Shown here: in pieces, positions 1-64,000 of the stretch
Layout of the letters: each line of letters opens with the position of its first letter
Position numbering within the stretch: position 1 is the stretch's first letter
Assembly: GCA_020628815.1 (NCBI GenBank)
Contig: JAHDEN010000001.1
Span: 36,288 to 100,287 of the forward strand
Length of the DNA: 64,000 nt
Reading direction: 5' to 3'
Source of the DNA: Chloroflexota bacterium
GTDB taxonomy: Bacteria; Chloroflexota; Anaerolineae; Promineifilales; Promineifilaceae
Translations under genes and position numbers: made by a program
Notes under the pieces: generated by a model
Told to the model about the DNA's origin: nothing
The model's input: the letters and a program-made list of their open reading frames with translations, nothing else
Databases searched by the model: none

Positions 1-1
1 A

Positions 2-2380
2 ATGTGCTTTACGCCAAATGCAACACCAACTGCAGAAGCTGATTTATGGTTCAACACCATCGCGACAGCAGATGCGACAAACAGCTGTGCAAATGTTGAG
101 TTTGAGGCGGAAAGCGGCGCGATGTACGGATTTACCACGGTAGCAGATCCTTCTGCAAGCGGTGGTAGCTACGTCCATACAGAAAACGCAGGTATTTTCG
201 ATTATCCAGTGTCGTCCAGCCGAATGATTACCTACTCGGTTAACATTCCGGCAACCGGCACCTACCAAGTGTTTGGTGATGTTCAAGGGTTAAACGGCAA
301 AAGCGATTCGTTCTATTTCCAAATCGATAATGAATCACCCATTCCTTGGCACATCAAACCAAGCAACAGCTTCTATCAGTTTTATGTTGCAGACTTCGTT
401 AACGGCTGGCACAACTTGTCTTTAGAACTAGAGGCAGGCGAGCATATCGTAACCATCTACAATCGTGAAGATGGCAGCCGTTTAGACAAACTGACTTTTG
501 ACTGTATCGAAGCTCAAGAAACCCCAGGATCTGTATTAGCTAGCACAACAATCACATACACGTTGTTGGCACGTGGTGCCGGTTTTGACCATGCGCTTAT
601 GCACAATCTACCTTTTGCAGAAGGTGGTCAATACTCACTCACAACATACGATGGTGACGGAGTTCAGCTATCAGCTGTAGACGGTTTGTTTGATGAAAAC
701 CAGCCGATTGAGATCTTCGCATCTTCAAAAGTAGGATTGCCACCAATTGATTCGGGTGACGAATACAACACCCAAACCAACACCCGTGGTGATCAAGAGC
801 AGATGGTTAAAGGACACAGTGCGGTCTTAACCTTCTCGATCAACAGTCCAGAAAAGTATCTGCAAGATGACTTAACCGGATTTCCTTGGGACCTTTATCT
901 GCCTGTCCATGACACAGATCAAGAGATCCATCTGCAAATTCCAGGACACATGGAAAACAGCCAGATGGTTAACACCACCTTCGACGCGGGCTCGCCCATG
1001 GTTGGCTACAACCTGCCATTTGGCTTTGTATTTGAAGAAGAATGGACTTGGCCGCTAGAATTTGAAGGGATTTGGAAAGCATATCCAGACTTCGTTAAGT
1101 TTATGAGCACCGGGTTCAACCAAAAACAAGATTGGTATACGGCCGAAAACGCCTTTGGACCATTCTTGTGGAACAACCGCAACACGCGCCAGCCCTTGTT
1201 GCCACTAACCAATGAAGATGTTGAATCTCGTTACTTTGCCAGCCCAGTAGTTGCTGACATCGATGACGACAAGGTTCCTGAAGTCATTGTTGGTGATTTG
1301 ATTGGCAGCAAAGTGTCTGTCTTCGACCTCGGCCAAAAACTAATCTGGTCGGCCGAAACCGATGGTGGTATCCGGGCTGAAGTTGCTATCGAAGACATTG
1401 ACTTTGATGGAGATGTAGAACTACTTGTTGGCGATGAAAGTGGCAAGCTGTATGCATGGCATCACGACGGGACCCCTGTCGCTAACTTCCCAATCACCGT
1501 ATCTAGCGAGCGTTTGCTTTCAAGCCCAACTATCGCAGATATTAACGACGATGCTGAATACGATATCATCCAAGTTAGCTCTGACGGTAACATGTACGTG
1601 TACAAAGCAGATGGCACCTTGCAGTGGCAAGTAGCTTTAGCCGCAAATGCGGACAGCTTCGCCGCACAAGAGCGCAACGGACAAGCTGTAGTTGAAGATC
1701 TGAACGGTGACGGCGCACTCGAGATCGTTGTTCCATCAGCAGATGGCTCTGTCATGGCATTTGATGCGATGGGAGACCTAATCTGGACCTTTGGTGCAGA
1801 AGACAGCGTTTCATCAACCCCGATTGTAGCGAACTTTGACCCAGATCAACCTGGTTACGAAGTGATCTTCGGATCTGGTGACTCTTATTTGTATGTTTTG
1901 AATCAAGATGGCGAGTTAATCTGGAAACGGGCAACCGATTGGATTATTAGCTCAGCCCCTCTGCTTCACGACTTAGATTCAGACGGCTTCCCAGAAATTT
2001 TGGTAGGTGGAGAAGATCAGAAACTCCATGCATTCCACTTCTGGGCAGAGACTGTTGAAGGCTGGCCACAAGAGATTTATGGTGCGATCACTTCTGCTCC
2101 GGTAGCGGGTGACATCGACGCTGATGGCGAAGATGAAATCATGATCGGTGGTGAAGATGGTAAGCTTTACGCTTGGAACAGCGACGGATCTCCCGTCCCA
2201 TCATGGCCAAAACAGACGGGTGAATCATACAAAGGTGCTCCTGTCATCTTGAATGCTGACGACGATGCAGAAGAAGAAATCTTCGCGGCCGACTTTAGCG
2301 GCGCCCTGTTAACTTGGGGAATCGATGAAGAAGATCCAATCGTTATTTACAGAGCATATTTACCATCTGTTGAGCGGTAA
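2..2380 (+). CDS. Secreted FG-GAP/VCBS-repeat beta-propeller protein, C-terminal 792 aa (5' end lies outside the window); a CBM-like module followed by integrin-alpha-like repeats
   Basis: Open frame from the window edge to TAA. Repeated FG-GAP-type motifs (DIDDDKVPEVIVGD, DLNGDGALEIVV, DIDADGEDEIMIGG). The N-terminal 'FEAESGAMYGF..ASGGSYVH..DKLTF' segment resembles a CBM6/35-like sugar-binding module. Collinear and clearly similar by eye to the last ~790 aa of the next gene. Confidence 0.85.
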   Translation: MCFTPNATPTAEADLWFNTIATADATNSCANVEFEAESGAMYGFTTVADPSASGGSYVHTENAGIFDYPVSSSRMITYSVNIPATGTYQVFGDVQGLNGKSDSFYFQIDNESPIPWHIKPSNSFYQFYVADFVNGWHNLSLELEAGEHIVTIYNREDGSRLDKLTFDCIEAQETPGSVLASTTITYTLLARGAGFDHALMHNLPFAEGGQYSLTTYDGDGVQLSAVDGLFDENQPIEIFASSKVGLPPIDSGDEYNTQTNTRGDQEQMVKGHSAVLTFSINSPEKYLQDDLTGFPWDLYLPVHDTDQEIHLQIPGHMENSQMVNTTFDAGSPMVGYNLPFGFVFEEEWTWPLEFEGIWKAYPDFVKFMSTGFNQKQDWYTAENAFGPFLWNNRNTRQPLLPLTNEDVESRYFASPVVADIDDDKVPEVIVGDLIGSKVSVFDLGQKLIWSAETDGGIRAEVAIEDIDFDGDVELLVGDESGKLYAWHHDGTPVANFPITVSSERLLSSPTIADINDDAEYDIIQVSSDGNMYVYKADGTLQWQVALAANADSFAAQERNGQAVVEDLNGDGALEIVVPSADGSVMAFDAMGDLIWTFGAEDSVSSTPIVANFDPDQPGYEVIFGSGDSYLYVLNQDGELIWKRATDWIISSAPLLHDLDSDGFPEILVGGEDQKLHAFHFWAETVEGWPQEIYGAITSAPVAGDIDADGEDEIMIGGEDGKLYAWNSDGSPVPSWPKQTGESYKGAPVILNADDDAEEEIFAADFSGALLTWGIDEEDPIVIYRAYLPSVER

Positions 2381-2414
2381 ACACCGTTTTTAAGCAGATA
2401 ACATAGCAATCCAA

Positions 2415-2448
2415 GGGGATGGCGCACAACAAGCGCCGTCCCCTTTTT
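2415..2448 (+). terminator. Rho-independent terminator after the first giant-protein gene
   Basis: GGGGATGGCGC / loop ACAACAA / GCGCCGTCCCC, followed by TTTTT. Confidence 0.7.
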
Positions 2449-2950
2449 GCTTTAGCATCTCATTTAAGACAGAAGATTAAATACGCTCAAAGCGTACCCC
2501 GTGACTGTGTAAAAGTTCTTCACTCCCTACAGGTCAGTACAAACTCTCCATTGGATTACACCCTCAAACCATTTATGATTTTTCTGCAATAGACACGGCA
2601 CGCTCTAAGAATCACTTCTCTTTTCAGTGCTGTTTACCAATTTCCTACTAGGAACAATCGGGGACCCTGACGGGGCTAGATGTCAAAACCGTCAGAATTT
2701 TCGAAAGGTAATCTATTTAACATTCGCGGTGTTAGCAGAGCCTCTTTTGCTAGCGCCAATTTTTGGTCAGGTGATTCCACACCCAGCCAACCTATGCACA
2801 GCAGGTCATTACCTCTTAATTGCCTGAACATAAAGCTATCGTTGTTTAAGAAGGCAGCGAGTTCATCTCTAGCGATTTAGTTCAATTTATATATTGCGTC
2901 TACGTATGTTTTTCCATGTCTTGTGGGACGGCATCGGCGCAGGATGACTT

Positions 2951-5900
2951 ATGTTCTCAAAAAAATCAGCTTTTCTATTCATTTTTTCGCTTTTGATTTC
3001 AGCAACTGCGGTATTTGCCAACACATCGTTTGCAGATCCAAATGCTGGAACTTTGACCCTAACCCACGGGGTCGGAGATCAAGAGCCCCTATTAGGCGGA
3101 ACAGTCAGTTTCGACATTACTTTAGGGAACACTGGATCCGATCCGGTGACTGACAAAGGTTACAATGTAACTATCTCGAGTACCTTACCCGTTAGCGTCA
3201 CGTACGTTAGCGCAACAATAAGTCCAACTTACATTGAAGAACAAGCCGATGGATCAACATTGCTGTTTTGGGACAATATTGCGGACTTAGAGGTAAACGA
3301 AGAATTGGGTCTATCTATCACAGGGTCGCTTAGCCCAGATATTACAATCGCAGATACGATCACAAACACTGTTTTGGCTAGCTTCAACAATGCGCCTGAC
3401 AACAGTCTGGCATGGCAAGAAGTTACCTCTCAGGTTTTAGCTTTACCACAAGCGATCGACATCGAGACAGTTGCGATTCAGTCAACGGCCGATGAGCAAG
3501 CAACCGGTGCGGGAGAATACGATGGGAGTGCAGACTGGCCTTACCAATACAAAGCGACGATTAAAAATAATAATGTGGGGTCCACAGAAGATGTAGTGGC
3601 GACGGTTATTTTACCGGCCGGTGTTGCGTACTTGGGCGATGTTTCAATCAGCCCAAATCCAAACAACAGCTCAACCACGCCAGACATCTCATTAAACGAA
3701 GATGGATCACTAACTTTAGAATGGGATCTTGGCACGTTGACTACAGCTCAATATGCCACTCCTGTAGAGATTTTGTTCGATGTGGCTATTCCACACAACT
3801 TCCGCACCAGCGATGATTTTCTAGCTCTTGCAGGTCCTTTTGCGGGACCAATGAGCGGTGGGATCATTCCTGAAGATCAAGTGATGGAAGTAACCTATGA
3901 AGCGACAGGTATGTACGATTCAGCCTCAACGGCCGATGGAACCACATCTACCCCAGATGATGACGCACCCGTTATCGTGATTGCTGAATATTTAACTATT
4001 TCAAAATCCGCTTCGCCAACCGTTGTAGGCATCGGTGACACCGTCACATTTAATATCGACTATTTTGTCTCTGAATACTACACAACAACCAGCGTGGTCA
4101 TCACAGACATCTTGCCTGATGGAATGACGTTTGTAAGCTCATCACTCTTCCCAAGCAGCATCACAGAAGATTCTCCGGGAGCGGGCCAAACAACCATCGT
4201 CTTTGATATTCCTACGCCTAATACCATTCCGGGATCAAGCGGAACAATTGAAATTACCGCAACGGTAGACGAAACCTATGAGCGTGCACCTTATGCAGGC
4301 CAACCGATTGTTTCGGCCGACAGCCTGACCAATCAGTCAACCCTTGGCAACGATTGGGAAGACATTGTGGTTGAGGACCGATCAGACGCTGGGATTCCTG
4401 ACCAGTCAAACGCAACTGTCACAACTAGAAAACCAACCCTAACCAAAGATGTAAAAGATCCTGTAACCGGTTTATGGGGTGATGAGAGCTACGGATTTAC
4501 CGGCGACACAATTTATTTCAGAATCAACTTTGCCCAAGCGGCCGATGTTGATGGCAAAGAAGTTGTTATTCGAGATTTCTTGCCACGCGGCATGACCTTT
4601 GTTGGCTCAACGGACACTTACACCTCAAGTGGCACATTTACGAGCGCAGGCAGCTGTACAACCAACGTCAGCTCTCCTACGATTGGTGATCTAAATGGTT
4701 TGCAATATCTAGAATGGAGATTGTGCGATGTTGACCAAGGCAGCACTTGGGAAACGCAATTTGGTGCGATCTTAGGCGATATGCCAGACGTTCAACCCAA
4801 CTGGATCGTCGGTAACTTCGGAAAATTAAGCTTCCAAAATACATATGGAGATGGGTTCAGCGAACGGGACTTTGCAACGGTTGATTACCGTGCACCGGAT
4901 CTAGTTTTAACTAAATCATCGACCCCAAGCAGCTCATTAAACGGCGGCGATGCGGTTGCGTATACGATTACGGTAGAAAACCAAGGTGACGCCACGGCGT
5001 ACAACTTGAATCTGCTCGACATTTTGCCCGAGTGGCTGATTGTTTCAGCCAGCGGTGGCTCAGCCACACCTGCCAGCAGCAGCTTCACGGCCGACACAGG
5101 CGCTCAGGCTGGAAATGGTGGCACGGCAACTTGGTCACAAATCGCGAGTCTAGCGGTGGGTGAAAGCCAAACGTTTACATACAACGCCACGGTTAAAAAC
5201 GGTGTGATTCCGGGTGAAGCACTCACCAACATTGCGTCAGTGGCTTACAACAGCCGCAGCGACAATACAGGACACGCATGGACCCATTCCAGCGACCCTG
5301 AAGACAATCACACGGCCGACAACACCGTGTACGTTGAAGGTTTAACGATCACCAAATCGTTTGAACCAAACAACGTCACCATCGGTGATATTGTGACATG
5401 GACCTTAGATGTAAATGTTCCAGCAAACGTGCATGCACACTTCCCTGTGGTTGAAGAAAACAATTTGCCACAAGGGTTCGACTATGTTGCAAACAGCACC
5501 GTCATCAACAATGCCACATTATCAACGGCTCATGCTCAAAATCCATTGGATGATGGGTATCGCGACCTGCGTTGGTTCGTTGATTCAATTGACAACTCTT
5601 CCAGCGGGACTGTGCGCCAATTTTCAATTGAATTCCAGACACTGTTTACAGGGGTTCAAGGCACAAACACCGCCAACGAATTCCACATAGATAACTGTAA
5701 AAATTACAATAAGACCAATACGGCCTATGTAGGTTGGTATGGCACCTCTAATGGGTTTAGTGGTGGTCAAGCAGAAGATAGCATTAGCACATCTTATGAC
5801 TACAAAAGCCCTAAAGGAACAGCAAAAATCAAGCTGCAACAACCTTGTTTGAACATTGCCAAATCGGCCCAATACTCAAGCGTTGGTTCGGACGGCCAGT

Positions 5901-8900
5901 TCTACTACGAAATTGTTATTTCAAACAGTGGTGACAAACCGGCATTTGACGTAGAAATTTCAGACACGTTGCCAGCAGGCATCACGTATAACAGCACAAA
6001 TCCGGTTACGTTTGACCCGGCTCCAACAGATACGGGTACAACCCTAACAAATTCAGTTGGTGACACAGAGATTGAATTTACAATCAACGAAATCCCGGCC
6101 GACGGCACCGCCACAATTCGGTATTTCGTGAATACAGATCCGAAATTGTCAGCCTCGCTTGACCTAGTCAACACAGCCACCATTACCGAGTATTCAACCC
6201 AGCCAGGAACCCCGGCGGATACCAACAGTGATGGCTTGAACGATGAGCGGGTTTATTCGGGCCCAACCGCAACCGCGGCAATCCGAACCTATAACATTTC
6301 TATCAAGAAAGAATCAGATGCGCCTGAAGAATTCACCTATGGTTCAACGATCGTTTATACGTTAACCGTTCCAATGAATCCGATCAAAGCGTATATGTAT
6401 GATGTGGTTATTTCGGACCCATTGCCAGAAGGACTCGAGCCGGTCAGCACATCGGCCGGATCTTTTGACGGTAACACCTTAACCGCCACGTTTGCAGAAA
6501 TTGGTGAACTTCAGCAAGAAGTTATCGTCATCGAAGCACGTGTTCCTGCAGATAGTTCGCTACAAGACGGAGCGATCGTTAGCAACGCAGCATCTGTCAC
6601 AACAGACCAAGATTCAGCAGCCAGCAACACCACAACCGACAACTTTAGCGCACCCGCTCTGGTTGTAGACAAAGTGAGTGATCTGTTTGTTGTCTCTGAA
6701 GGGGACACGGTTGAATACACCATTACCCTGAAAAATGTTGGTACTGGCACAGCGTACAACATTGATTTAAGCGACATTTTACCCGCCAACCAAAGCTATT
6801 TGAATAGCGAAGACGGCAGTTGGACTATTGCTGAATTGGCTGGAAACAGCGAGCAAACGTTCACCTTCTCGACAAACGTAGACTACATCGTTCAAGGTGT
6901 GGGCTACACCAACAGCGCATACGCAGTTGGTGAAGATGCAGAAGGTGGCGCGATCCTGAGTGACAGCAGCAGCCGAGTACCGGCCGATGATGATCCACTT
7001 GATTTGGGTCAGGCAACGATTTATGGTGGCCCGCTCGAATGTAATTCTGAAATCAAAAACGTTGCGTTTGAAGACCTAAAAAATACCGGTTGGAGTGACT
7101 GGGATTACAACGACCTGATCGTAAAAATCGAGACTGAGTTGTGTTTCACCCCATCATCCAGAACACCAGTTGAATTAACCCAAGTTAATGCGTGTGAAAA
7201 TGTTTCTATCGAAGCTGAAAACGGCATCTTAAGTGGCTTCACGGTCATCAATGATGCGGCAGCTAGCGGCGGTTCATACATTCATATGCCTGACACAGAA
7301 GGTGAGTTTGACCCGGCCGATCCGGACGCAGCCACAAGCGCGACCTTCACATTTAACGTCAGCGTACCTGGCTCATACAAATTCACCGGTATCGCAGAAG
7401 GCACAAGCTTCTTTGCAGACTCGTTCTGGTTTGCGATTGATGACGAAGCACCTATCCAATGGGCAGTTCCACGTGATCAAGGCTTAACCGAAGTTGATGT
7501 AGCCGACTACGTGAACGACATTGATCCATACTCTGTTGATTTAGCCCCAGGCGATCACACCGTAACGATTTATAACCGCGAAGACGGCGCACGTTTAGAC
7601 AAACTAACCATGGTTTGCCAAGGCGTCTCTGAAACGTATGTACCTAACACATTGGCCACGGTAAACATTACCTACACGGCCGGTGCGCGCGGTGCTCACT
7701 TTAACCACACCTTGAAACATGATCTAGATGTTTCGGGCAGCGGCCAATCTCACTGGCAGCTATTTGACTCAAGCAACAATGTGTTGCAAAACGAACGTGG
7801 CAACTTTGGTAGTGAAGCAGACTTTGTGATCATTCCAGACACCCACGAGGCGCTACCACCGTATCATGCAGATGATAACGAGCGCCAAACAAACACACGC
7901 AAAGACCAACCTGAATATACAAAAGGGTATTGGGCCACTTTATCAGTCTCCTTGAACGATGCATCGATAAACCCGTTAGACGGGTTGCAGCAGCTACCTT
8001 GGGACGTGTATTTACCAGTTGAAGATACCGGCGAAGAAGTGCATTTGCTCGTTCCTGGTCACTTAGACAACCTACAGGTTGTTTCAGCCAGCTACGATGG
8101 GAATATCGGCTCGCCGCTGTTAGGGCAAAGCCTGCCGCTTGGATTCTCATTTGAAGAAAGCTGGCATTGGCCAACTGAATTCTCAGGAGTTTGGAAAGCA
8201 TATCCTGACTTCGTTGATTTTATCGAATCGGGCAGATCAGAATCATTGCAATGGTACGAACTAGAGAAATCGATCGACTGGTTTATCTGGGAAACCCATT
8301 TAGGTTCAGATGTTCCATTTGATGTTTTGGCCGAGCAGGTAACCAGCCGGTACCAAGGCAGCCCGATTGTGGCAGACCTTGATCTTGACGGAAACAACGA
8401 GATCATCGTTGGTGACTTAATCGGGAACGAAGTTGCTGTGTTCACAGGTGGACAATCTGTGGTCTGGAAAGCGGCTACCAACGGTGGTATCCGTGGCTCA
8501 GCAGCGGCCGGCAATCTGGATGATGACAATGAGCTAGAGGTTATCGCCCTAGCAGAAGACGGCATGCTTTACGGCTGGAACCATGACGGTTCAGTCCTTG
8601 ATGGATATCCGATCCAAATCATCGACGGCCGGTTGTTATCGTCACCCATCATTGTTGACCTTGAAGATGACGCCTCAAACGACATCTTGATCTCTGCATC
8701 AAACGGCCGGTTGTACGCCCGTAATGCAGACGGTAGCGCCAAATGGAACTCAAGCATCGGCGATATTGTAGATGCGTTTGGTAGCCAAAGCCTGAACAGC
8801 TCACCCGCTTATGGGGACTTAGACGGCGATGGTGACCTTGAAGTTGTGGTTGGCTCATACGACAAATGTATGTACGCCTTCGACCATTTAGGAACTGAAC

Positions 8901-9490: not shown

Positions 9491-9500
9491 ACAGAAAAAT

Positions 9501-9540
9501 GAGATCAAAGTCGGATACCCTCCGGCTTTGATCTCTGCTT
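9501..9540 (+). terminator. Probable terminator hairpin after the giant gene
   Basis: GAGATCAAAGTCGG / loop ATACCCT / CCGGCTTTGATCTC (one G-T pair). The T-run is weak (TGCTT). Confidence 0.5.
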
Positions 9541-9644
9541 AAATACCATAGTGAAAGGAGCGTAAATCGCAAAATTTTATAAAAATCGTTCAAACTTAAG
9601 CACCGCCCAAACAAGCGGCTGCATTTAAACAAAAAAGTCGACCT

Positions 9645-10730: not shown

Positions 10731-10733
10731 GCC

Positions 10734-11480
10734 CTAACGGACCCGGTTCAGCAACCCCTCGGCCGAATATCTCGCTACAACAATCTCCTCATCAGAAAGA
10801 GCCATCCCATTTGTACCTGAATACAACAGACGCCCCGCGTCATCAAGCACATGGTGCAGCCCCAAAATATGGCCGATCTCATGCGACGTCACCCGCTCAT
10901 CAAACACACTGGGGGTATCCATTACAAAAAAGGCGTTTGAGTTTGAGGGGTTAATACCGTTGGGGCCACCCAGTTGTTGGGTGTAAAAACCGACGATTGG
11001 CGCAAAGCTGGGCAAATCGATATCGCCTGAATTAACCGCATTGAAAAAGCTAAAAAAATCTCGATTGTTGAGCCGCAAAAGCAAATCCTGTGGCACCGTT
11101 GCCCGCTGGATGGTTTGCACCTCAAGCTCAATGTTGGCCTGGCTCCAAATCTCGTTAACCCGTTCGTAGATCTGCTCAATATCAGCGACAGTCCGGCCGC
11201 TTGAAAGCTCTCCATCTGCATCATCCAAAATATAAATCGCGATCGGGATCACAATCGTCTCAAGTTCAGGGTCGGCCGTGGGTTCAGGAATCGCAGTTGC
11301 TGTAGGCTCCGTCGGTTCCGGTTCGGCCGTAGCAACCGTGGCAGCCGTGGGTGCCAGCGTGGGGATGGTTTCTGGCGAGTCGAGAGTGGGTTGAACGGCC
11401 GGAGGTGTTGAACAGGCAACCGCCATCCCAACAAATAAAAGCAATCCGATAAAAAAAGAAATTTGTTTCAACAAAGTCAT
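10734..11480 (-). CDS. Secreted zinc metalloprotease lipoprotein (metzincin-like HExxHxxGxxH)
   Basis: HEIGHILGLHH zinc-binding motif. Signal peptide with lipobox (LLFVGMAVAC). Start chosen at the internal ATG at 11480, which is preceded by AAAGGGG. The ORF track extends to 11528. Confidence 0.8.
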   Translation of the reverse strand: MTLLKQISFFIGLLLFVGMAVACSTPPAVQPTLDSPETIPTLAPTAATVATAEPEPTEPTATAIPEPTADPELETIVIPIAIYILDDADGELSSGRTVADIEQIYERVNEIWSQANIELEVQTIQRATVPQDLLLRLNNRDFFSFFNAVNSGDIDLPSFAPIVGFYTQQLGGPNGINPSNSNAFFVMDTPSVFDERVTSHEIGHILGLHHVLDDAGRLLYSGTNGMALSDEEIVVARYSAEGLLNRVR

Positions 11481-51187: not shown

Positions 51188-51198
51188 AGTGCAACTTT

Positions 51199-54579: not shown

Positions 54580-54608
54580 AGCCGAAAGTAACACACCCCC
54601 TTTATTCG

Positions 54609-55334
54609 CTAAATTGCTAAATCTAATAGCTGATCATAAAGCGGTTGGCATTCAGCCAACAGTGGTTTTAACTGGTCTGGAAACGCAGTCTCTTTAGGCT
54701 TATATTTCATAAATCCAGTTGATCTGTGGACGCTATCGTACCAAGCAGGTGCCCAAGCACCATCTTCAGGACGAGCCCCAGCTGGCCAGCTCAGCATCGC
54801 TGGGTCAAAGGGAATCCCAACATGCTCACACATCTTAGACAGCACGCCTTCAGGGTCCTGCAGCACTCGTTTTGAATCAATAATAATGGGAGTCTGACCG
54901 TTATCGATCAAATATTTCCACAGGCGCATATTGTCAGCATATCCAACATCTCGCATCGTTGGTGCTGAAACCTGATGAGCATACGATGGGAGCATATCCA
55001 CAGGATTCCGAATTAAGATCACGTTGGTCATCTTTTGCAGAAAATCCCAAGGCATATTTACAAGATGATGGGTCATCTGCTTGAAAAATATCACTGGGGT
55101 TTCAGGGTCTGCCAGCATAATCTTTTGTAAAACATCACGATAGTCGGCCGACTGTGTCTTTAATGTCTCCGCAGCTAAAGGATGATATTCATCCGCATCG
55201 GTAGTGCTCAAATAATGAGCATACAAAGGCTCATCTACAACCGTTGTGTCGCTTCGCTGAGCAAAGCTATACATGAGCGCTGTTGATATGTTTCTGGGGC
55301 CTGACCACACATTTAATCGTAAAAATTGACTCAT
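54609..55334 (-). CDS. Sulfotransferase-like P-loop-fold protein (putative)
   Basis: 'VWSGPRNISTALMYSF..DEPLY' N-terminus recalled from the sulfotransferase-family annotation. The functional assignment is weak. Confidence 0.45.
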   Translation of the reverse strand: MSQFLRLNVWSGPRNISTALMYSFAQRSDTTVVDEPLYAHYLSTTDADEYHPLAAETLKTQSADYRDVLQKIMLADPETPVIFFKQMTHHLVNMPWDFLQKMTNVILIRNPVDMLPSYAHQVSAPTMRDVGYADNMRLWKYLIDNGQTPIIIDSKRVLQDPEGVLSKMCEHVGIPFDPAMLSWPAGARPEDGAWAPAWYDSVHRSTGFMKYKPKETAFPDQLKPLLAECQPLYDQLLDLAI

Positions 55335-55529
55335 TAGAATTTTTTTTGGTGAATAAAGCTAATTACTTTTGGGACCGATTCAATATTCTATGCAACATTT
55401 TTTATTTAGCATATCGGCCCTTACGCTAAACTATTAGTCATACTCTTTGGGCAAACGGACCTATATACATAGGGCTACAAATCAATCAAAATTGGAAGCT
55501 GATATCTAAATTAATTCACTTGTGATTCT

Positions 55530-58220
55530 ATGTTTCAAAATCCAGCCGTTAGCTTCTATATTATTCTATTTATCGGGCTCCTTTTACTTGGCACGACCAT
55601 CTATTCATTTCGGGCCAGTAAAAATTGGGTAGGATACAGCTTTTCTATTTTCATGCTGACGCTAACCGCCATGGCATTGATGGAGCTATTTACGATTCTT
55701 AATGTAGGGAAACCGCTTATTTGGGGGCTTAGCCGTCGTATCTCGCTCTCTTTTTCAATTCTATTTGTCCCATACACTCTAATTCAATTCACTTACGCAT
55801 TAGCAAATGACAATGCCAGAATTCCACCAAAATATCTTTCTGGGTTGCATGGTTATTTTGCAGCAGTCTTACTTCTCCTTTTCACCAATTCGCGGCATGG
55901 GCTAATTTTGTTCGAAGGCCACCTCATCGAACCGGCCGTGCGCTCATCCTTCCAAAGTGTAAATGGGCCATTACTCATCCCGGTGTTGGCCATCTCACTA
56001 CTAGGCTATCTCTATTCAATCAGCCTGTTATTTAATCTGGCCAAGCGAAGTAGAGGCAATCTCAAAAAACAGTCCATCTTTTTAATCGGTGCAATCTGCT
56101 TACCTCTGGTAGTTAGTATCGGGCAAATTGCTACAGATCAAATCAACTTGGTAATTTCCCCCACAGTTGTCGGGTTTTGTATTTGCGGGCTCATTTCTAC
56201 ATTTGTTCTTTTTACACTCAATCTCAATAACGTTGTCGTCTTTGCACGAGACACCGTAATTGAGCAAATGGAAGATGGCGTTCTTGTTCTAGATCATCAG
56301 GAAGTGATCCAGTTCGTCAATCCAGCGCTTTGCAAAATGGTTGGATGGGGCTTTAATAAAATCGTAGGTAAAAACGTCTTTGAGCTATTGTCCTATATTC
56401 AGGTTGAAGGCTTTTTTGACGAGCAAAGCATAAACGATTGGGAAGATAAAACCCTTGTTTCGATGAACCACTTTGAGCTAAATACTCCGATGGTCTTAGA
56501 AATCCGAAAAAATCTTTTTTACGGCCAAGCGGGCGAAAAGATCGGCACCATGCTCATATGGCAAGATGTAACGGCCAGATACAATGCAGAAGTCGCGATG
56601 GCTGAAGCTCGATCCCTAGCAGAAGATGCAAACCGAGCCAAATCCGCCTTTCTTGCCAACATGAGCCATGAAATTCGAACCCCCCTTAATGGCATTTTGG
56701 GGATGGCGGGCCTGCTTAAAGACACAGAGCTAACTCCAGAACAACTAGATTTTTGCCAAACAATTGTTGGCAGTGGTCAGTCTCTTCTAACAATTATTAA
56801 CGATATTCTTGACTTCTCGAAAATTGAAGCTGGAAAATTAGATCTGGAGGAAGAACCGTTCTTTCTACATCGTTGCGTAGAAGAGGTATTAGACATATTG
56901 GCATCAAAAGCAGAAGAAAAAGATATTGAGTTAGCCTTTATGCCAGAGGGGGTTGTTCCAACAACGATTTTAAGCGATGTCACCCGTTTGAGACAGGTCT
57001 TGTTAAACCTGATTGGAAACGCGATTAAGTTCACAAGTGAAGGTGAGGTGGTTATCTACCTTTCGGCCGAGCGAAAGCTTAGCACTGAAAATCCGTGGCT
57101 GTTTCACTTTCGTGTAAAAGATACCGGCATTGGGATCCCCGAAGACAAAATCAATCGGTTGTTCAAAACCTTTAGTCAAGTAGATGAATCGACCACGAGA
57201 AAGTTCGGCGGGACAGGTTTAGGCCTTGCAATCAGCAAAAAGCTGGCCGAAATGCTTGGGGGAGATATGTGGGTTGAGAGTGAGCTAGGCAAAGGCTCCA
57301 CGTTCCACTTTACCGTTGCAGCCAATGCATCTTTCGATCAACCGCCTGAACATCTCACAAACAATGAAACCCCATTGTTTGGCAAGCAGATTTTGGTTGT
57401 AGATGACAATCTAACCAATCGGAAGATAATCGAAATCCAACTCAGAAACTGGGGAGTAGTCTCTACTTTGGCCGCATCAGGTGAAGAGGCGCTGTCGCTT
57501 TTAGACTCCGAGGGACCAAATCAATTCGACATGGCGATCTTAGACATGCACATGCCGGAAATGAACGGGCTGGAACTGGCCCAAGAGGTACGCAAAAATC
57601 GAAGTAAAGATAAATTCCCGCTAGTCATGCTCACCTCACTCGGCCGAATTAATGATGATAAAAATGCTGAATTTTCATCCTACTTGACAAAGCCTGTAAA
57701 AGCCGCCCATCTATTCACTGCGCTTGTGAAAGCGACAAAGCCGAACCTAATCCAAGACGTGGACGAAAATGAAGTTTCGAATCCTAATGAACAAGCGGTT
57801 GCAGGCTTTGGTGAAAATCTAGCTGATCATGCCCCGCTCTCAATTCTTCTGGCAGAAGATAACATCGTTAATCAAAAGGTTGCGCTGAGAATGTTTGAAC
57901 GGCTAGGCTACAAGATAGAAATGGCGAACAACGGCCGTGAAGCGCTTGAACTGTTAGAGCAAAAGCAATTCAATGTGGTATTTATGGATATGCAAATGCC
58001 AGAGATGAATGGGACTGAGGCGACAGAGAAGATTCGAAACGAATGGCAAGATCGTGCTCAACCCTGGATTGTTGCAATGACAGCAAATGCTATGGTCGGA
58101 GATAGAGAAAAATATTTAGAGCTTGGGGTTGACGATTATGTAAGCAAACCGGTCAACAAAGATTCGTTAGAGGAAGCGCTAAAAAGAGCGGCTAAAAGTC
58201 TAAAACTTACTACTCGATAA
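55530..58220 (+). CDS. Hybrid sensor histidine kinase (N-terminal 7TM region, PAS, HisKA, HATPase, two receiver domains)
   Basis: ~7 hydrophobic helices. PAS-like 'MEDGVLVLDHQEVIQFVNPA'. H-box MSHEIRTPLNG, G-boxes DTGIGI/GGTGLGLAI. Two REC domains (ILDMHMPEMNG, FMDMQMPEMNG). Confidence 0.9.
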   Translation: MFQNPAVSFYIILFIGLLLLGTTIYSFRASKNWVGYSFSIFMLTLTAMALMELFTILNVGKPLIWGLSRRISLSFSILFVPYTLIQFTYALANDNARIPPKYLSGLHGYFAAVLLLLFTNSRHGLILFEGHLIEPAVRSSFQSVNGPLLIPVLAISLLGYLYSISLLFNLAKRSRGNLKKQSIFLIGAICLPLVVSIGQIATDQINLVISPTVVGFCICGLISTFVLFTLNLNNVVVFARDTVIEQMEDGVLVLDHQEVIQFVNPALCKMVGWGFNKIVGKNVFELLSYIQVEGFFDEQSINDWEDKTLVSMNHFELNTPMVLEIRKNLFYGQAGEKIGTMLIWQDVTARYNAEVAMAEARSLAEDANRAKSAFLANMSHEIRTPLNGILGMAGLLKDTELTPEQLDFCQTIVGSGQSLLTIINDILDFSKIEAGKLDLEEEPFFLHRCVEEVLDILASKAEEKDIELAFMPEGVVPTTILSDVTRLRQVLLNLIGNAIKFTSEGEVVIYLSAERKLSTENPWLFHFRVKDTGIGIPEDKINRLFKTFSQVDESTTRKFGGTGLGLAISKKLAEMLGGDMWVESELGKGSTFHFTVAANASFDQPPEHLTNNETPLFGKQILVVDDNLTNRKIIEIQLRNWGVVSTLAASGEEALSLLDSEGPNQFDMAILDMHMPEMNGLELAQEVRKNRSKDKFPLVMLTSLGRINDDKNAEFSSYLTKPVKAAHLFTALVKATKPNLIQDVDENEVSNPNEQAVAGFGENLADHAPLSILLAEDNIVNQKVALRMFERLGYKIEMANNGREALELLEQKQFNVVFMDMQMPEMNGTEATEKIRNEWQDRAQPWIVAMTANAMVGDREKYLELGVDDYVSKPVNKDSLEEALKRAAKSLKLTTR

Positions 58221-59982
58221 CGGGCAACATAACAGACACATCATCAAATTGAACAACACTGGTTTTTGCATCTTCATTCAACGGGGTGGCCAAATAAAAT
58301 CCGATCTGCCCTTTGTGATCCATTTCAGAATTTACAGGGATTCTCTCTACAAACTGATTGTTGATAAATAAATCCATTTCATCTGCGCGCACTTCAACTC
58401 GCAGATTATTCCAATTGCTGTACGGTTCAATTGTCGAAGATGGTATCCACGGTGAGCCACTTTGCTCTTTCAAGGCTACCCACACCCCATCGGTCAAGTT
58501 CCAAACGCTCCACTGCCCCAGGCCATTCACCCCGAACACGTGATAGTCACGAGGAGACTTGTAATTAAACACAAGTCCATATCCTGTTTCTAACGGGCCA
58601 TCTTTATGAATAATATTTGCGCTAAATGTGTATTGCTCGTATTCAGGGCTCTCAACAGGAACAGCCGAAACGACACTATCGGCTTTTTCAATCCGCATTT
58701 CATAAACGCCGTCAACCAATTGGATCCAGCGAGGAGCACCGCCAGTGGGCCAAACAAGATCGTTGTTATCAAAGGAATCGGTCAATTCAACTAGGCCGCC
58801 TACCACTTCACCACCTGTTCCAGCTTCTACTTCTGGTGACCGCCCAGCGCGACGATTGAGGAAGATTGATCCAAAAACAAGAAGTAGAACCAGCCCGGCC
58901 GCGCCTGCTTTCATGCGCCAGTCAATTTGACTAAATTGATATATCCACCTAAACCAGCCTGTTAACCGAACCTTTGTGATTTCAACCCAGTTATTTTCAG
59001 ATGCACCATGAATGGGAGAAACAACTAATGAGTTATCTGCTTCTGCGTCATTTAATTGAGCATATTTAGGACTATTCAACAGGTTTTGAATCTCATCAGC
59101 TAGCTCTTGCCCAGATTGATACCGATCATCCCCATTTTTCTGAGCCGCACGATTCACAATATATGAAACCGCCTCGTCAACTTCAGGATTGATTTCACTC
59201 ATCGATGGCAACGGCTCATTAATGTGCTTCATGAGGATGCCATACAAGTTCTCGGAGTTAAACGGGAGTTCGCCAGTCAGTAACTGATACAACACGATGC
59301 CCAAGGAATATATGTCGCTGCGTTTATCTCCACGATCTCCCGTAATCATTTCAGGTGGGATGTAAGTCGGCGTGCCGCTGGTAGCCCCATCGGCCGTCAT
59401 TCGGTTCTGGTGCAGTAACGTTGCAATTCCGAAGTCGGTAAGAACATAGCGGCCGTCAGTGCCGATCAAAATATTTCCAGGTTTCACATCTCGGTGAATG
59501 ATCCCAAACTTGTGAGCATAATCTAAAGCTTCAGAAATATCTCGGGCGATTTCAAGCGCCTGCTTAACCGGAATGGGTTTAAATTTATCTTTTGAGATTT
59601 CGCGAGCTTTTAGCTGTTGATCAAGCGCCCCACCGTCAATATACTCCATCGAAATAAAACTAACTTCATCCGAAGCCTCAAAATCGTAAACTTGCACGAT
59701 GTTGGGATGCTTCATGCTCGCAATCGCTTGGGCTTCAAGCAAAAAGCGTTCGCGCACAGTTTTTTCAATGGTTAGATGCTGATGCAGAACTTTAAGCGCG
59801 ACATTACGACCCAAGGGTTCTTGAACCGCTTTGTATACAGTCGCCATACCGCCTTGCCCCAAGACTTCCCCGATTTTATATTTTCCTATCGTGTCGCCTG
59901 ACTTTATTTTCAAGCCTAACTTTCCTTGATTGCGATTTGAAATTGACCGTTTTTGTGAATCAATTATATGGCTGAAGGCCAA
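58210..59982 (-). CDS. PknB-like Ser/Thr protein kinase with a TM helix and a LamG/DUF1080-like ectodomain
   Basis: GQGGMATVYKA, VALKV, HRDVKPGNIL, DFGIA, PTYIPPE. TM helix AGAAGLVLLLVFGSIFL. The C-terminal ~200 aa end in VQFDDVSV. TTG start as in the ORF track. The 3' end overlaps the convergent hybrid HK gene by 11 nt. Confidence 0.85.
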   Translation of the reverse strand: MAFSHIIDSQKRSISNRNQGKLGLKIKSGDTIGKYKIGEVLGQGGMATVYKAVQEPLGRNVALKVLHQHLTIEKTVRERFLLEAQAIASMKHPNIVQVYDFEASDEVSFISMEYIDGGALDQQLKAREISKDKFKPIPVKQALEIARDISEALDYAHKFGIIHRDVKPGNILIGTDGRYVLTDFGIATLLHQNRMTADGATSGTPTYIPPEMITGDRGDKRSDIYSLGIVLYQLLTGELPFNSENLYGILMKHINEPLPSMSEINPEVDEAVSYIVNRAAQKNGDDRYQSGQELADEIQNLLNSPKYAQLNDAEADNSLVVSPIHGASENNWVEITKVRLTGWFRWIYQFSQIDWRMKAGAAGLVLLLVFGSIFLNRRAGRSPEVEAGTGGEVVGGLVELTDSFDNNDLVWPTGGAPRWIQLVDGVYEMRIEKADSVVSAVPVESPEYEQYTFSANIIHKDGPLETGYGLVFNYKSPRDYHVFGVNGLGQWSVWNLTDGVWVALKEQSGSPWIPSSTIEPYSNWNNLRVEVRADEMDLFINNQFVERIPVNSEMDHKGQIGFYLATPLNEDAKTSVVQFDDVSVMLPVIE

Positions 59983-60171: not shown

Positions 60172-60409
60172 AAATTCAAAATTTATCAACTGTGACGAAG
60201 ATAAGTATTTTGCAGTTTGTTTCCAGAGAGTTAGCGGCGGTGCAAGCTAATAACAAAAGCAATTGAAATCTACTTCTGAGTTGTTTGCGCAAAACGCAAA
60301 CCGGTTAGGACCGTTATATCCTCCAGAGTATAGTCAAAGCTTAGAGCAATGACTTAAAATTCAGGTGGTACCGCGACGCCCCTTCGCCCTGAAGCGAAGG
60401 GGCGTTTTG
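60172..60409 (+). promoter_or_regulatory. T-box riboswitch leader (Ser specifier) with an intrinsic terminator
   Basis: AGAGAG and GGUGCAA Stem-I elements. GAAA-UCU-A specifier candidate at 60269-60271. T-box sequence AAAUUCAGGUGGUACCGCG (60355-60375). Terminator CGCCCCTTCGC/GCGAAGGGGCG+TTTT (60377-60409). Confidence 0.8.
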
Positions 60410-60477: not shown

Positions 60478-61845
60478 ATGATAGACATAAATTTGATTCG
60501 AAATCAGACCGATTGGGTGCGTGAGCAATTGGTCAAGTTAAATGACACCAAGGCACCGATAGACACCGTCTTAGAGCAAGACACTATCCGCCGAGAGGTA
60601 ATTGCAGAGGTTGAAGAGCTGCGACGGGAGCGGAATGTAGCCAGTAAAGCGATTGGCAAAGCGATGGGTGGCTTGAAAAAAATGGAAGCCGACCTTAAAA
60701 AAGCTCAGGCGGCCGGTGAAGCTACGGCTGAGTTAGAAGCTCAAGTTGCTCAGGCTCAAAAAGAAGCGGAAGCTGCCAAAGATAAACCACGCAAGATCGG
60801 GGATCGTATTGATGAGCTGCAAGAAAAGCTAAACAAAGCTGAAGCCCGTTTACGAGAAGCGATGCTGTGGGTGCCGAACATGCCGCACGAAAGTGTTCCG
60901 GTGGCGATGAGTGACGAAGAAAATGTAAATGGGGCACCACAGGGAACACCCATCCCACAATTTGATTTTGAACCGATACCCCATTGGGATTTGGGACCAC
61001 AGTTAGGGCTGATTGACTTTGAGCGAGGGGTAAAACTGAGCGGAAGCCGGTTTTATGTTTTACAAGGGGTTGGTGCCCGGCTGCAGCGGGCGGTGATCCA
61101 GTTTATGCTCAACCATCATGTAGATGAGCATGGCTACACGGAGATTTATCCGCCGTTTATGGTACGTAGCGAAATGTTTGAAGGGGCGGCTCAGCTACCT
61201 AAATTTGCTGAAAACATTTATCGTGATGCTGAAGAAGATTTCATGTTCTTGGGCACGGCCGAAATCGCGCTAACAAATTTGCATAGAGATGAGATTTTAG
61301 AGCATACGGATTTACCGAAAAAGTATGTCGCTTATACACCTTGTTTCCGACGTGAAAAAATGAGCGCCGGCCGAGATGTACGCGGCATCAAGCGTGGCCA
61401 TCAGTTTGATAAGGTGGAAATGTACCGCTTTACCAAGCCAGAAGACAGCTATGCGGCGCTTGAAGAACTCCTGACCGAAGCGACAGATATCGCTGAAGCG
61501 TTGGAGTTGCCGTACCGCATCGTTGATATTGTAAGTGGCGACCTTGGGTTTGCGGCCGCCAAGAAATATGATGTTGAGATTTGGGCGGCCGGTTGCCAAG
61601 AGTGGCTTGAAGTGAGCAGCGCCAGTAACTGTGAAGGGTTCCAAGCTCGCCGGGCCAATATTCGGTATCGGCCGGATGAAGGTGGACGGCCGCAGTATGT
61701 TCATACCCTAAATGCCAGCGGGCTAGCATTGCCCCGCGTCATGATCGCCATCATGGAAAACAATCAGCAAAAAGATGGCAGCATTGTAATACCCAAGGTT
61801 TTGCGTCCATACATGGGTGGCCTAGAGGTAATCGAACCGGCATAA
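60478..61845 (+). CDS. serS: Seryl-tRNA synthetase
   Basis: Class II motifs (FRRE, GHQFDKVE, ASNCEGFQARR, LNASGLALPR), an N-terminal coiled-coil arm, and a length of 455 aa. Confidence 0.95.
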   Translation: MIDINLIRNQTDWVREQLVKLNDTKAPIDTVLEQDTIRREVIAEVEELRRERNVASKAIGKAMGGLKKMEADLKKAQAAGEATAELEAQVAQAQKEAEAAKDKPRKIGDRIDELQEKLNKAEARLREAMLWVPNMPHESVPVAMSDEENVNGAPQGTPIPQFDFEPIPHWDLGPQLGLIDFERGVKLSGSRFYVLQGVGARLQRAVIQFMLNHHVDEHGYTEIYPPFMVRSEMFEGAAQLPKFAENIYRDAEEDFMFLGTAEIALTNLHRDEILEHTDLPKKYVAYTPCFRREKMSAGRDVRGIKRGHQFDKVEMYRFTKPEDSYAALEELLTEATDIAEALELPYRIVDIVSGDLGFAAAKKYDVEIWAAGCQEWLEVSSASNCEGFQARRANIRYRPDEGGRPQYVHTLNASGLALPRVMIAIMENNQQKDGSIVIPKVLRPYMGGLEVIEPA

Positions 61846-62705: not shown

Positions 62706-62767
62706 GCAAGCAGCCATAATCAAGCAAGGCAGACCCATACGGTCATTCACACTTGAACAGATTTTCA

Positions 62768-62803
62768 ACCTCGGGGGTTTTTAAGGCTCCCGAGGTTTTT
62801 TTT
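62768..62803 (+). terminator. Rho-independent terminator after the GST gene
   Basis: ACCTCGGG ... CCCGAGGT followed by TTTTTTTT. Confidence 0.75.
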
Positions 62804-62994
62804 ATAGATTAGGGCTTACGCATTTGGTGTTACAAGTTTGATTTTTGCGTAAATCCTATAGATTTAGCATTTGCTTCGAAAGCTCTTCAAGAGCAAACGT
62901 CCTAAAACACAACTTGTCACTTGCTTGCCTCCAACTTCTCACCCTTCCCTCATCACATTCGGCCGCACAACCTGCTATAATCTGATCCGCATTT

Positions 62995-64000
62995 ATGGAT
63001 GAAGAAGAAGAAACCTCTGGAACCCCGGAGGATGAGTCGTCTCGACCCGACGAAAACAAATCAGCTGAGCTTGAACATGAGGTGCGTTGCCCTACATGTG
63101 ATTTTCGCTTAAGCGAAAAAGCTGACCGCTGCTTAATGTGCGGCGCAGAACTGGCTCCTGAAATCTTCTTAACCGAAGAAGAGCGACTTGAAGCCAAGCA
63201 AGCGGTAGAAGAGGCGATAGCTGCCGTAAAAGAAGCGGAAGAGGCGGCTGAAATCGAGGCGGCCGCGACTGCATCCCCTCCCAAAGCAAAACGTTCATCC
63301 CCTAAAATGGCAAAAATGCCGGGGTTAAATTGGCGGCCGACCCCGCTGTTTGGCATCGGGCTTTTCTTTTTCTTATTTACGGCCGTTGTGGGCACCTTTG
63401 GATTTCTAAATCCGAACGCCATACCGGTTAGCCTGCTCCCATCCCTCACCCCAACAGAAGCCCCGCTGGTTGTGTTGCCGTCCCAAACCCCAACATTGGT
63501 TCCCTCGGCCACACCCTTAATCACGAACACCCCCAGCCCAACTGTTATTCCCACGGTTACCCCAACACCACTGCCCACAAACACCCCCGAGCCACTCCGC
63601 ACCTATCAGGTGCTGTCTGGGCAAACATTGGTCGGGATCGCATCTCTGTTTGGCTATACGTTAGACTCTTTCTTCCAAGCCAATAACTTTACAGATCAAT
63701 CGATCATTATCGAAGGTCAAGAGATTTTTGTGCCTTGGCCCACGGCTACGCCGCCACTACAACCGATTTTCTATGATATCGGCGGGCAAACGTTGATTAT
63801 CGACCCATCTAACTGTCCACCATTCTACGAAATTCAGGAAGGGGACAGTCTGTTTAGTCTGGCATCTCGCAATGACATTCCTCTCGATGCGCTGCTTGAG
63901 ATGAATTATTTGACCGTTGACTCGATTGTGCAGCCGGGTGATCCGATCTGTATTCCACAAATTTTAGAAGGGGCTGTGTTTATTCCTACACCTGGCCCAT
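62995..64000 (+). CDS. Zinc-ribbon / TM / LysM-repeat protein (3' end outside the window)
   Basis: My own translation from the ATG at 62995: MDEEEETSG...CPTCDFRLSEKADRCLMCG (zinc ribbon), TM helix LFGIGLFFFLFTAVVGTFGF, a Pro/Thr linker and two LysM-like units (YQVLSGQTLVGIASLFGY..., YEIQEGDSLFSLASRNDIPLDALLEMN). It is absent from the ORF track because it runs off the window. Confidence 0.8.
   Translation, partial: MDEEEETSGTPEDESSRPDENKSAELEHEVRCPTCDFRLSEKADRCLMCGAELAPEIFLTEEERLEAKQAVEEAIAAVKEAEEAAEIEAAATASPPKAKRSSPKMAKMPGLNWRPTPLFGIGLFFFLFTAVVGTFGFLNPNAIPVSLLPSLTPTEAPLVVLPSQTPTLVPSATPLITNTPSPTVIPTVTPTPLPTNTPEPLRTYQVLSGQTLVGIASLFGYTLDSFFQANNFTDQSIIIEGQEIFVPWPTATPPLQPIFYDIGGQTLIIDPSNCPPFYEIQEGDSLFSLASRNDIPLDALLEMNYLTVDSIVQPGDPICIPQILEGAVFIPTPGP

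Follow-up and report, generated by a model that had tools for sequence, protein, structure and literature searches.

Why does one six-base palindrome, CGGCCG, recur along the whole of a stretch of bacterial DNA, and what keeps it there? The question is raised by 64,000 bases from a Chloroflexota bacterium of the family Promineifilaceae (assembly GCA_020628815.1, contig JAHDEN010000001.1, positions 36,288 to 100,287), which we analyzed in full and refer to as the window. A sequence-only reading had claimed an extreme over-representation of CGGCCG in this DNA and had compared the word to HIP1, the highly iterated palindrome (HIP) of cyanobacteria. Both claims are supported: the excess is large and blind to reading frame, 58-68% of the contexts that could hold the word do hold it, the flanks are unconserved, and the word is found across a clade, in part with 8- and 10-base extensions. 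We think it fairly probable that CGGCCG is a HIP-type highly iterated palindrome, that is, a hyper-abundant recognition word as opposed to a repeat element or a by-product of coding.

Abundance of CGGCCG in the window

The window has a G+C content of 47.5% and contains 196 copies of CGGCCG (3.1 per kb), which ranks first among all hexamers, ahead of the A/T-rich words. Base composition predicts 11.5 copies per 64 kb, so that the earlier estimate of one copy per 5 kb was about right, and O/E, the observed count divided by the expected one, is 17.1. A Markov-corrected expectation had been named beforehand as a possible refutation; chains of order 1, 2 and 3 predict only 15.4, 28.5 and 55.2 copies. 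The order-4 expectation of 138.6, from a model that uses the pentamers CGGCC and GGCCG, themselves mostly derived from the motif, is still below the observed count. The runner-up hexamers by O/E are all overlapping sub-words of CGGCCG. In a comparison of the 64 palindromic hexamers the second-ranked word reaches an O/E of 2.6, and CGATCG, the core of HIP1, is present in 11 copies (O/E 0.79). The tetramer GGCC occurs 400 times, 196 of them within CGGCCG, and the remaining 15 NGGCCN words taken together occur as expected (O/E 1.06).

Every 2-kb bin of the window is enriched, with O/E values of 5.8-31. Recounting reproduced the 16 sites reported in the gene at 2951-9490 and the nine in the cluster at 30.9-36.3 kb. 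Between 22,000 and 25,000 we counted 21 sites where 22 had been reported; the figure of 22 is reached if the site at 25,009 is included. The two examples given of different reading frames, ACG-GCC-GAG at 22867 and GAC-GGC-CGT at 22949, are correct. The intergenic site that had been noted exists, at 36817-36822 and not at 36827-36832.

Independence of the coding sequence

We called genes as the longest non-overlapping open reading frames (ORFs), which gave 45 genes covering 90% of the window. Of all copies, 191 lie entirely within called genes and five outside, so that 97% are intragenic. The coding sites occur on both strands and in all three frames: 32 as CGG-CCG (R-P), 116 as NCG-GCC-GNN and 43 as NNC-GGC-CGN. 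When synonymous codons were permuted within each gene, with the protein and the codon usage of the gene kept, 200 shuffles gave 28.7±5.0 copies (maximum 44), compared with 192 observed in coding sequence. By frame, the observed 32, 117 and 43 copies stand against shuffled expectations of 5.0, 16.9 and 6.8, which corresponds to excesses of 6.4-, 6.9- and 6.4-fold. The statement that the pattern does not stem from one dipeptide or codon preference is thus upheld by the shuffling, with its roughly 6.5-fold excess in each frame, and by the non-coding excess described below. Confinement to one frame or amino-acid pair, the other refutation named in advance, is contradicted by the equal enrichment of the three frames.

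Contexts in which the encoded amino acids would permit the word are filled in 32 of 47, 117 of 202 and 43 of 63 cases by frame (58-68%; about 62% overall). Occupancy per gene is 0.4-1.0 in nearly all genes with enough contexts, including those of the AT-richer block at 30-40 kb. The idea that this block is foreign DNA lacking the motif was rejected: its 2-kb bins have O/E values of 9.6-31, and its genes are occupied to a similar degree. The non-coding DNA of the window (6.6 kb, 39.6% G+C) contains five sites against 0.40 expected, and the pooled non-coding DNA of 12 related loci contains 20 against 2.65. Because the excess is frame-blind and is present on both strands and in non-coding DNA, causes acting at the level of translation or RNA are excluded.

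The proteins themselves are affected. Relative to amino-acid shuffles, amino-acid contexts that permit the site are 1.10-, 1.43- and 1.32-fold as frequent in enriched loci, compared with 0.98-, 1.17- and 0.97-fold in control loci. The force behind the word suffices to influence which synonymous codons are used and, to a measurable extent, amino-acid contexts.

These results bear on the reading that the excess is an artefact, produced by base composition, by codon usage, by pairs of amino acids or by some dispersed repeat or mobile element with CGGCCG in it. The uneven use of frames could be taken in its favour, since NCG-GCC-GNN accounts for 61% of coding sites, and so could the correlation of site density with local G+C (r=0.63). 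Against this, the Markov and codon-shuffle expectations are much too low, the fold-excess is equal across frames and extends to non-coding DNA, and the positions that flank the site are nearly random. In addition, the median O/E of CGGCCG is 0.45 in 77 other loci from many phyla, some of similar G+C, that were returned by a search with the agmatine deiminase of the window, and only 52 of 1148 permitted contexts are filled in controls. The Markov, shuffle, frame, flank and control tests refute the artefact reading, to which we assign next to no probability.

Anatomy of the site

From position -8 to +8 the sequences around CGGCCG are near-random, with a mild preference for T or C at -1 and for A or G at +1. 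The unit in this genome is therefore the bare hexamer and is not embedded in a longer repeat. The sequence-only reading had stated that the site often takes the form TCGGCCGA, which overstates a weak flank bias: 20 of the 196 sites have this form, and the TCGGCCGA octamer is not the unit here. Repeat elements and their mobility are excluded because the flanks are flat. Site counts are Poisson-like, with a variance-to-mean ratio of 0.9-1.2 in bins of 0.5-2 kb, and within the 64-kb window there is no preferred spacing and no periodicity or clustering at 0.5-4 kb.

The word is favoured only when perfect. CGGCCG is 6- to 98-fold commoner than each of the 18 words that differ from it by one base. 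Depletion among these one-off neighbours is limited to the central positions (CGNCCG and CGGNCG, O/E about 0.6), and variants at the outer positions are as frequent as expected or more so, led by the transitions CAGCCG/CGGCTG and TGGCCG/CGGCCA. For every one of the six positions of the motif there is a frame that makes it a synonymous third codon base. Within each frame the two bases open to synonymous choice go together, both or neither, with odds ratios of 160, 18.5 and 72. Permitted contexts pooled from nine strongly enriched loci contain 545 full, 149 one-off and 191 two-off words, compared with 52, 537 and 559 in 18 controls with a similar G+C content. The ratio of full to one-off words is 3.66 against 0.10 in controls, a shift of about 37-fold toward perfect sites, and the ratio of one-off to two-off words, at 0.78 against 0.96, is that of the background. 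The counts show a force that acts on double-stranded DNA independently of frame and coding and fills about 60% of the positions that proteins tolerate. They also show that the preference is for the perfect 6/6 word only, extends to all six positions and amounts to about 37-fold at equilibrium.

Such behavior constrains an explanation by very-short-patch (VSP) repair, in which a 5-methylcytosine (m5C) methyltransferase specific for CGGCCG and a Vsr-like endonuclease would restore T:G mismatches to C:G, leaving a word without function. It has a precedent in the inflation of CCWGG by Dcm and Vsr in E. coli (Bhagwat & McClelland 1992, Merkl et al. 1992, as cited in PMC4687349). It would also account for the restriction of depletion to CGNCCG and CGGNCG, where the methylated base of a GG(m5C)C-type site would lie. 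Correction of one base pair, however, cannot favour CGGCCG over neighbours that differ elsewhere; all 18 are rarer to the degree given above, the CGGNCG class as a whole is present at 4.6 times expectation, and synonymous choice is driven at all six positions. These observations rule out a single-base repair bias as a sufficient cause. The central variants expected from deamination, CGGTCG (O/E 0.58) and CGACCG (O/E 0.74), are no rarer than the transversion variants at the same positions; searches of the window, the related loci and the enriched viral loci revealed neither a vsr nor a dcm homologue; and the 8- and 10-base forms described below require recognition beyond a 6-bp methylase site. 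We regard VSP repair as an improbable origin of the word.

Conservation of sites between species

We compared orthologues from the window and from two contigs (L084 and L085) found with its malectin-domain protein (65-66% identity), in which CGGCCG has O/E values of 21.6 and 17.5. The identity of four-fold degenerate third positions is 0.33-0.49, that is, essentially saturated. A site present in one species and permitted in the other was nevertheless retained in 44 of 50 cases, and across the tmk/malectin region, the densest stretch of the window, the orthologues in both contigs retain sites wherever the amino acids permit. The agmatine deiminase gene gives the same picture in four species. 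Among the seryl-tRNA synthetases (SerRS) of nine genomes, with protein identities of 70-89%, three alignment columns retain the site in six to eight of the nine. Sites are thus shown to be maintained across species whose synonymous positions are saturated.

Permitted contexts that are empty are mostly CGGCTG or CAGCCG, and those empty in one species were filled in the other in six of six cases. The conservation thus resembles uniformly high occupancy at equilibrium more than selection on particular positions, and a position-specific function was rejected on the same grounds. The closest relatives found share about 75-81% nucleotide identity with the window, which is too distant for recent gains and losses of sites to be polarized.

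For HIP1, Xu et al. proposed sites that are bound by a nucleoid or chromosome-architecture protein and selected for how densely and how far apart they lie. Such sites would be conserved beyond the synonymous background, as is seen here, and HIP1 itself has a periodicity of 10-90 kb (PMC5861425). The Poisson distribution and lack of preferred spacing within 64 kb do not agree with such a role for CGGCCG. Neither does the filling of empty contexts in the other species, which indicates a uniform equilibrium instead of position-specific sites. DNA-binding proteins usually accept near-matches, and one-off variants gain nothing here. We consider an architectural role very unlikely.

Phylogenetic spread and dialects

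The closest relatives in the genome collection, identified with agmatine deiminase at 83-89% identity, are three metagenome-assembled genomes (MAGs) of Chloroflexota/Anaerolineae (L001-L003), in all of which CGGCCG is the top hexamer (O/E 15-17.5). A metagenome scan with the malectin-domain protein found only distant, high-G+C relatives without enrichment. With SerRS as a marker, we sampled contigs of successively lower identity; taxon labels are given as deposited. O/E is 17.1 in an Anaerolineae MAG at 87% identity (L088), and 13.3, 10.4 and 12.0 in L089, L090 and L091 at 74-76%, the last being a 'Ca. Promineifilaceae' MAG. At 70-71% it is 4.5 in a contig labelled Promineofilum (L092), 5.4 in an Ardenticatenaceae MAG (L093; JACKBV010000004.1, 1-21362) and 4.2 in a complete genome labelled Anaerolineaceae (L094). 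Even in this last tier CGGCCG is the commonest or joint-commonest hexamer. A further locus (L215) has five sites within its serS. In total, 13 of 13 related loci are enriched (L001-L003, L084, L085, L088-L094 and L215). Another Anaerolineae locus (L034) has seven sites, an O/E of 1.2. The NCBI taxonomy places Promineifilaceae and Ardenticatenaceae in the class Ardenticatenia.

The form of the word differs between lineages. A weak T...A preference flanks the core in the group of the window, A...T in L089, L091, L093 and L094, and G...C in L090 and L092, and in some relatives the core is lengthened to ACGGCCGT, AACGGCCGTT or GCGGCCGC. In the Ardenticatenaceae contig 30 of 38 sites are ACGGCCGT (O/E 76), and 18 copies of the decamer palindrome AACGGCCGTT lie within 21 kb (O/E about 800). 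These long-form sites are found in three frames (T-A-V, N/Y/D-G-R and x-R-P-x) and at three intergenic spots. A family of CGGCCG-core palindromes, with dialects, is common to the Chloroflexota clade around Promineifilaceae and Ardenticatenaceae, and the comparison shows a drift of specificity between lineages, to ACGGCCGT, AACGGCCGTT or GCGGCCGC.

Two contigs deserve separate mention. The MAG that contains L085 is labelled 'Cellvibrionaceae bacterium' (Gammaproteobacteria), and its proteins are 65-85% identical to those of the window (P0003, P0128); this contig, or the bin as a whole, probably belongs to Chloroflexota and is mislabelled. A locus from another Anaerolineae MAG (L015; JAUZRW010000011.1, 1-21089) contains no CGGCCG against 3.6-5.4 expected, with 79 permitted codon contexts. 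This may be avoidance, the opposite of the trait of the window, and might reflect an EagI-like restriction system.

Phage and conjugative-like contigs

A scan of IMG/VR for two ACGGCCGT within 30 bases returned 120 loci, among which 14 of at least 3 kb have a CGGCCG O/E of at least 8; the set was chosen by motif and carries no information on how general the trait is among phages of the clade. One of them (L161; IMG/VR 3300025615_000033, 1-9283) is 9.3 kb long with 51.9% G+C and contains 38 CGGCCG (O/E 13.9) and 18 ACGGCCGT. It encodes the terminase subunits TerS (PF03592) and TerL (phrog_979, E=1.6e-43), and seven sites lie within the TerL gene. Another (L110; IMG/VR 3300033417_000002, 1-13185; O/E 12.6) comes from the same 100-kb contig as L185; the two carry FtsK/SpoIIIE-like and lytic-transglycosylase genes and, judged by their gene content, look conjugative.

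Phage and conjugative-like DNA thus bear CGGCCG at host-like density, and this argues against an active restriction enzyme that cuts unmodified CGGCCG as the main player. The enrichment of mobile DNA can be reconciled with a process that works on, or gives an advantage to, whatever DNA resides in these cells. A rival explanation is a selected 'self' tag for uptake or recombination, similar to the DNA uptake sequences (DUS) and uptake signal sequences (USS) or to Chi: DNA with CGGCCG, methylated or unmethylated, would be preferentially taken up or recombined, and molecular drive would spread the word in the clade's gene pool. Lineage dialects on a common core recall the dialects of DUS, the word is found on phage and conjugative-like contigs, and the sites are evenly dispersed at about 3 per kb. 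Known uptake sequences, in contrast, are 9-12 nt long and non-palindromic, and a hexamer discriminates poorly, occurring about once per 4 kb in any DNA of 50% G+C. No uptake or type IV secretion system genes are present in the window. A selected tag of this kind is unlikely, if worth keeping in view.

Candidate enzymes and proposed mechanism

All-or-none recognition of a palindrome of 6-10 bp is a property of type II restriction-modification enzymes, which makes a methyltransferase the likeliest agent. The word is probably read by a type II-like enzyme, for which a putative orphan CGGCCG methyltransferase is the most plausible candidate. Backbone chemistry offers a different kind of modification: Dnd-type phosphorothioate (PT) sites of Streptomyces lividans, which prefers GGCC within cGGCCg, map to the CGGCCG / GpsGCC palindrome (PMC6435447), and the word could be the consensus of such a system. 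Enrichment of the consensus is not known from PT systems, however, which modify only a minority of consensus sites, and no dnd genes were found in the window or in the related DNA read; we hold this explanation to be extremely unlikely.

In the mechanism that we favour, a resident, probably orphan, DNA methyltransferase specific for CGGCCG would mark the sites. Marked sites might then be stabilized by methyl-directed repair or protection from mutation, becoming self-protecting as in Elhai's ratchet (PMC4390886). Alternatively, methylated DNA that bears sites might be preferentially taken up or recombined, as reported for HIP1. Either process would hold sites at high equilibrium occupancy. A more inclusive version, which we put forward tentatively, is an independently evolved HIP system of Chloroflexota (Promineifilales, Ardenticatenales and neighbours). 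Here a putative modification enzyme conserved in the clade would read the CGGCCG core all-or-none as a methylation-dependent 'self' mark that biases uptake, recombination or repair. Its specificity would have split into the dialects (CGGCCG, ACGGCCGT, AACGGCCGTT, GCGGCCGC), which would partition gene flow between lineages and be copied by the phages and conjugative elements of each.

Several points weigh against reading CGGCCG as a methylated HIP. NCBIfam and Pfam models detected no DNA methyltransferase, restriction enzyme or Vsr among the 45 ORFs of the window. Regular-expression scans for motifs of m5C and N4/N6 methyltransferases and of Vsr, and tblastn with E. coli Dcm and Vsr, gave nothing, whether in the window, across about 250 kb from related loci or in viral loci with enrichment; these searches covered about 1-5% of each genome, which makes their negative outcome uninformative. 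The sole Dcm-like match was in a viral locus without enrichment (L133). Equilibrium counts fit selection and biased repair, conversion or drive alike and cannot separate them. The phylogenetic spread is based on 10-21 kb of sequence per genome, and the samples per genome range from 2 to 21 kb overall. The division into coding and non-coding DNA is approximate, as it depends on our own longest-ORF calls, and two of the five 'non-coding' sites of the window probably lie inside a split short-chain dehydrogenase gene and a mis-started LysM gene. Finally, a literature search with incomplete coverage of subscription papers found no description of hyper-abundance of CGGCCG, ACGGCCGT or AACGGCCGTT, or of iterated palindromes in Chloroflexota or Ardenticatenia.

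Features of the window

The coordinates of the sites and of the genes discussed are collected in Table 1.

Table 1. Location of CGGCCG sites and of site-bearing genes in the window
Feature	Position	Strand	Remarks
CGGCCG, 196 dispersed copies	1-64000		191 coding, 5 outside by longest-ORF calls
Giant surface-protein gene, 16 sites	2951-9490	plus	55% of 29 permitted contexts filled
Agmatine deiminase	12330-13433	minus	query for closest relatives
Overlapping double site CGGCCGGCCG	20431-20440		also 44484-44493 and 53217-53226 (three 4-base spacings)
tmk	21974-22603	minus	permitted-context occupancy 0.83
Densest stretch, 22 sites	22053-25014		covers tmk and the malectin-domain protein gene
Malectin-domain protein gene	22707-25034	plus	permitted-context occupancy 0.81
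Further intergenic sites	34659, 34926		outside called ORFs
Intergenic site TTCGGCCGAT	36817-36822		between ORFs ending at 36718 and 36839
serS (seryl-tRNA synthetase), 7 sites	60478-61845	plus	marker for phylogenetic spread and nine-genome site comparison

The giant gene encodes a surface protein of 2179 amino acids with DUF11 repeats, an isopeptide-forming fimbrial domain and a LruC domain, and the ORF upstream of it (2-2380) has FG-GAP/beta-propeller and DUF4842 domains. A NurA-domain nuclease gene (26775-28007, minus strand) contains nine CGGCCG sites, and no recognizable HerA partner was seen among the neighbouring ORFs scanned. A short-chain dehydrogenase gene at 28254-29148 (plus strand) is apparently split into overlapping ORFs (28254-28790 and 28627-29148), for which a frameshift, decay to a pseudogene or faulty assembly could be responsible; its second piece contains the CGGCCG at 29108 that was counted as 'non-coding'. 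The region 48989-59982 is a signalling cluster with an FHA-domain protein, two Ser/Thr protein kinases, a PP2C phosphatase, a sulfotransferase and a hybrid histidine kinase. Immediately 5' of serS lies a T-box leader (RF00230, 119 bits) at 60183-60394 on the plus strand. At 62856-63999 two long ORFs overlap on opposite strands; that of the plus strand (62995-63999), with LysM domains, is probably the real gene of the pair, and the minus-strand ORF of 248 amino acids has no family match.

Comparison with known systems

DUS of Neisseriaceae and USS of Pasteurellaceae occur in about 1-3 copies per kb, mostly within genes and in lineage 'dialects', and are thought to have spread by biased uptake and recombination. 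CGGCCG resembles them in copy density, intragenic location and dialects. It differs from them in being a perfect palindrome, of 6 nt in the window and of 6-10 nt across the clade, 97% intragenic in the window and not concentrated at terminators, whereas DUS and USS are non-palindromic words of 9-12 nt, often in inverted pairs as terminators, of naturally competent lineages. REP, REPIN and MITE elements are likewise abundant and palindromic, but they are structured units of 20-150 nt (for REP/MITE, extragenic stem-loops of at least 20 nt) that are mobilized as such outside genes, unlike a 6-nt word with random flanks situated almost entirely in genes. The action of Dcm and Vsr on CCWGG in E. 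coli provides a parallel in that a methylase site is inflated through biased repair of its deamination product (references in PMC4687349). A site of this type is expected to be accompanied by a specific shortage of its T:G-derived neighbour, in a genome with vsr beside the methylase gene. The E. coli effect is modest and concerns one base; here the excess is 17-fold and spans six positions, CGGTCG and CGACCG are low without falling below the transversions, and vsr and dcm are absent from the DNA searched.

The class of HIPs comprises palindromes that exceed compositional expectation roughly 15-fold or more and are outliers among words of their length. CGGCCG shows this hyper-abundance (O/E 17.1, with 2.6 for the next palindromic hexamer), is not driven by codons or peptides, occurs in all frames and in non-coding DNA, and consists of dispersed single words. 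It is shared by a phylogenetic group with variants built on its core and is conserved beyond the synonymous background, a result that high equilibrium occupancy would yield equally. Every testable property that defines HIPs is present, and only sequence identity with HIP1 is lacking: the word is neither GCGATCGC nor a derivative of the CGATCG core, and its host is a member of the Chloroflexota and not a cyanobacterium.

Other HIPs are known from cyanobacteria: GGCGCC in Calothrix, GCsGC in Cyanothece PCC 7822, rCCGGy in Oscillatoria PCC 10802, GGGATCCC in Yellowstone Synechococcus and CAGGCCTG in Synechococcus PCC 6312 (PMC4390886, PMC5861425). They demonstrate that the phenomenon is not bound to one sequence and that a lineage can swap one iterated palindrome for another, and CAGGCCTG has its GGCC centre in common with CGGCCG. 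These alternatives are cyanobacterial and mostly confined to single strains, whereas the CGGCCG core spans a multi-family clade of Chloroflexota with several dialects.

For HIP1, frame independence, conservation, variants, methyltransferases and an effect on transformation have been described (PMC4390886, PMC5861425, bioRxiv 10.1101/2024.09.10.611283, 10.64898/2026.06.24.733823). Like CGGCCG, HIP1 (GCGATCGC) is a short G+C-rich palindrome, 15- to 300-fold over-represented, that is found in all three frames and in non-coding DNA and is kept between genomes beyond codon conservation (PMC4390886, PMC5861425). In both, the central positions tolerate change least, and lineage variants share a 6-bp core, itself the site of a type II enzyme, and differ in their extensions. 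The two are distinguished by the core, CGGCCG (the EagI/XmaIII site) as opposed to CGATCG/GATC, and by phylum. The unit in the window is a bare hexamer at a higher density (3.1 per kb), and its one-off variants are not favoured, whereas those of HIP1 ('HIP1*') are reported to be weakly conserved. HIP1 also has known methyltransferases, DmtA and DmtC/Slr0214, the counterpart of which is here only putative.

CGGCCG and its dialects look like a second, independent family of HIPs, new both in its core and in its phylum. A word excess of 17- to 800-fold is a strong marker for binning and for assigning contigs, phages and plasmids to Chloroflexota hosts, and the force behind it matters for analyses of codon usage and selection in these bacteria, which are abundant in wastewater and sediment. 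For thirty years HIP1 has resisted explanation, and work on it has treated it as a peculiarity of cyanobacteria. The CGGCCG family is a natural replicate of it, unrelated in sequence and of the same anatomy: frame-independent, near-saturating, conserved and divided into dialects. Whether HIPs are due to an orphan methyltransferase, a ratchet of repair, a tag for uptake or recombination, or the architecture of the chromosome, the cause should occur in both groups, and comparative genomics can seek the component that they share.

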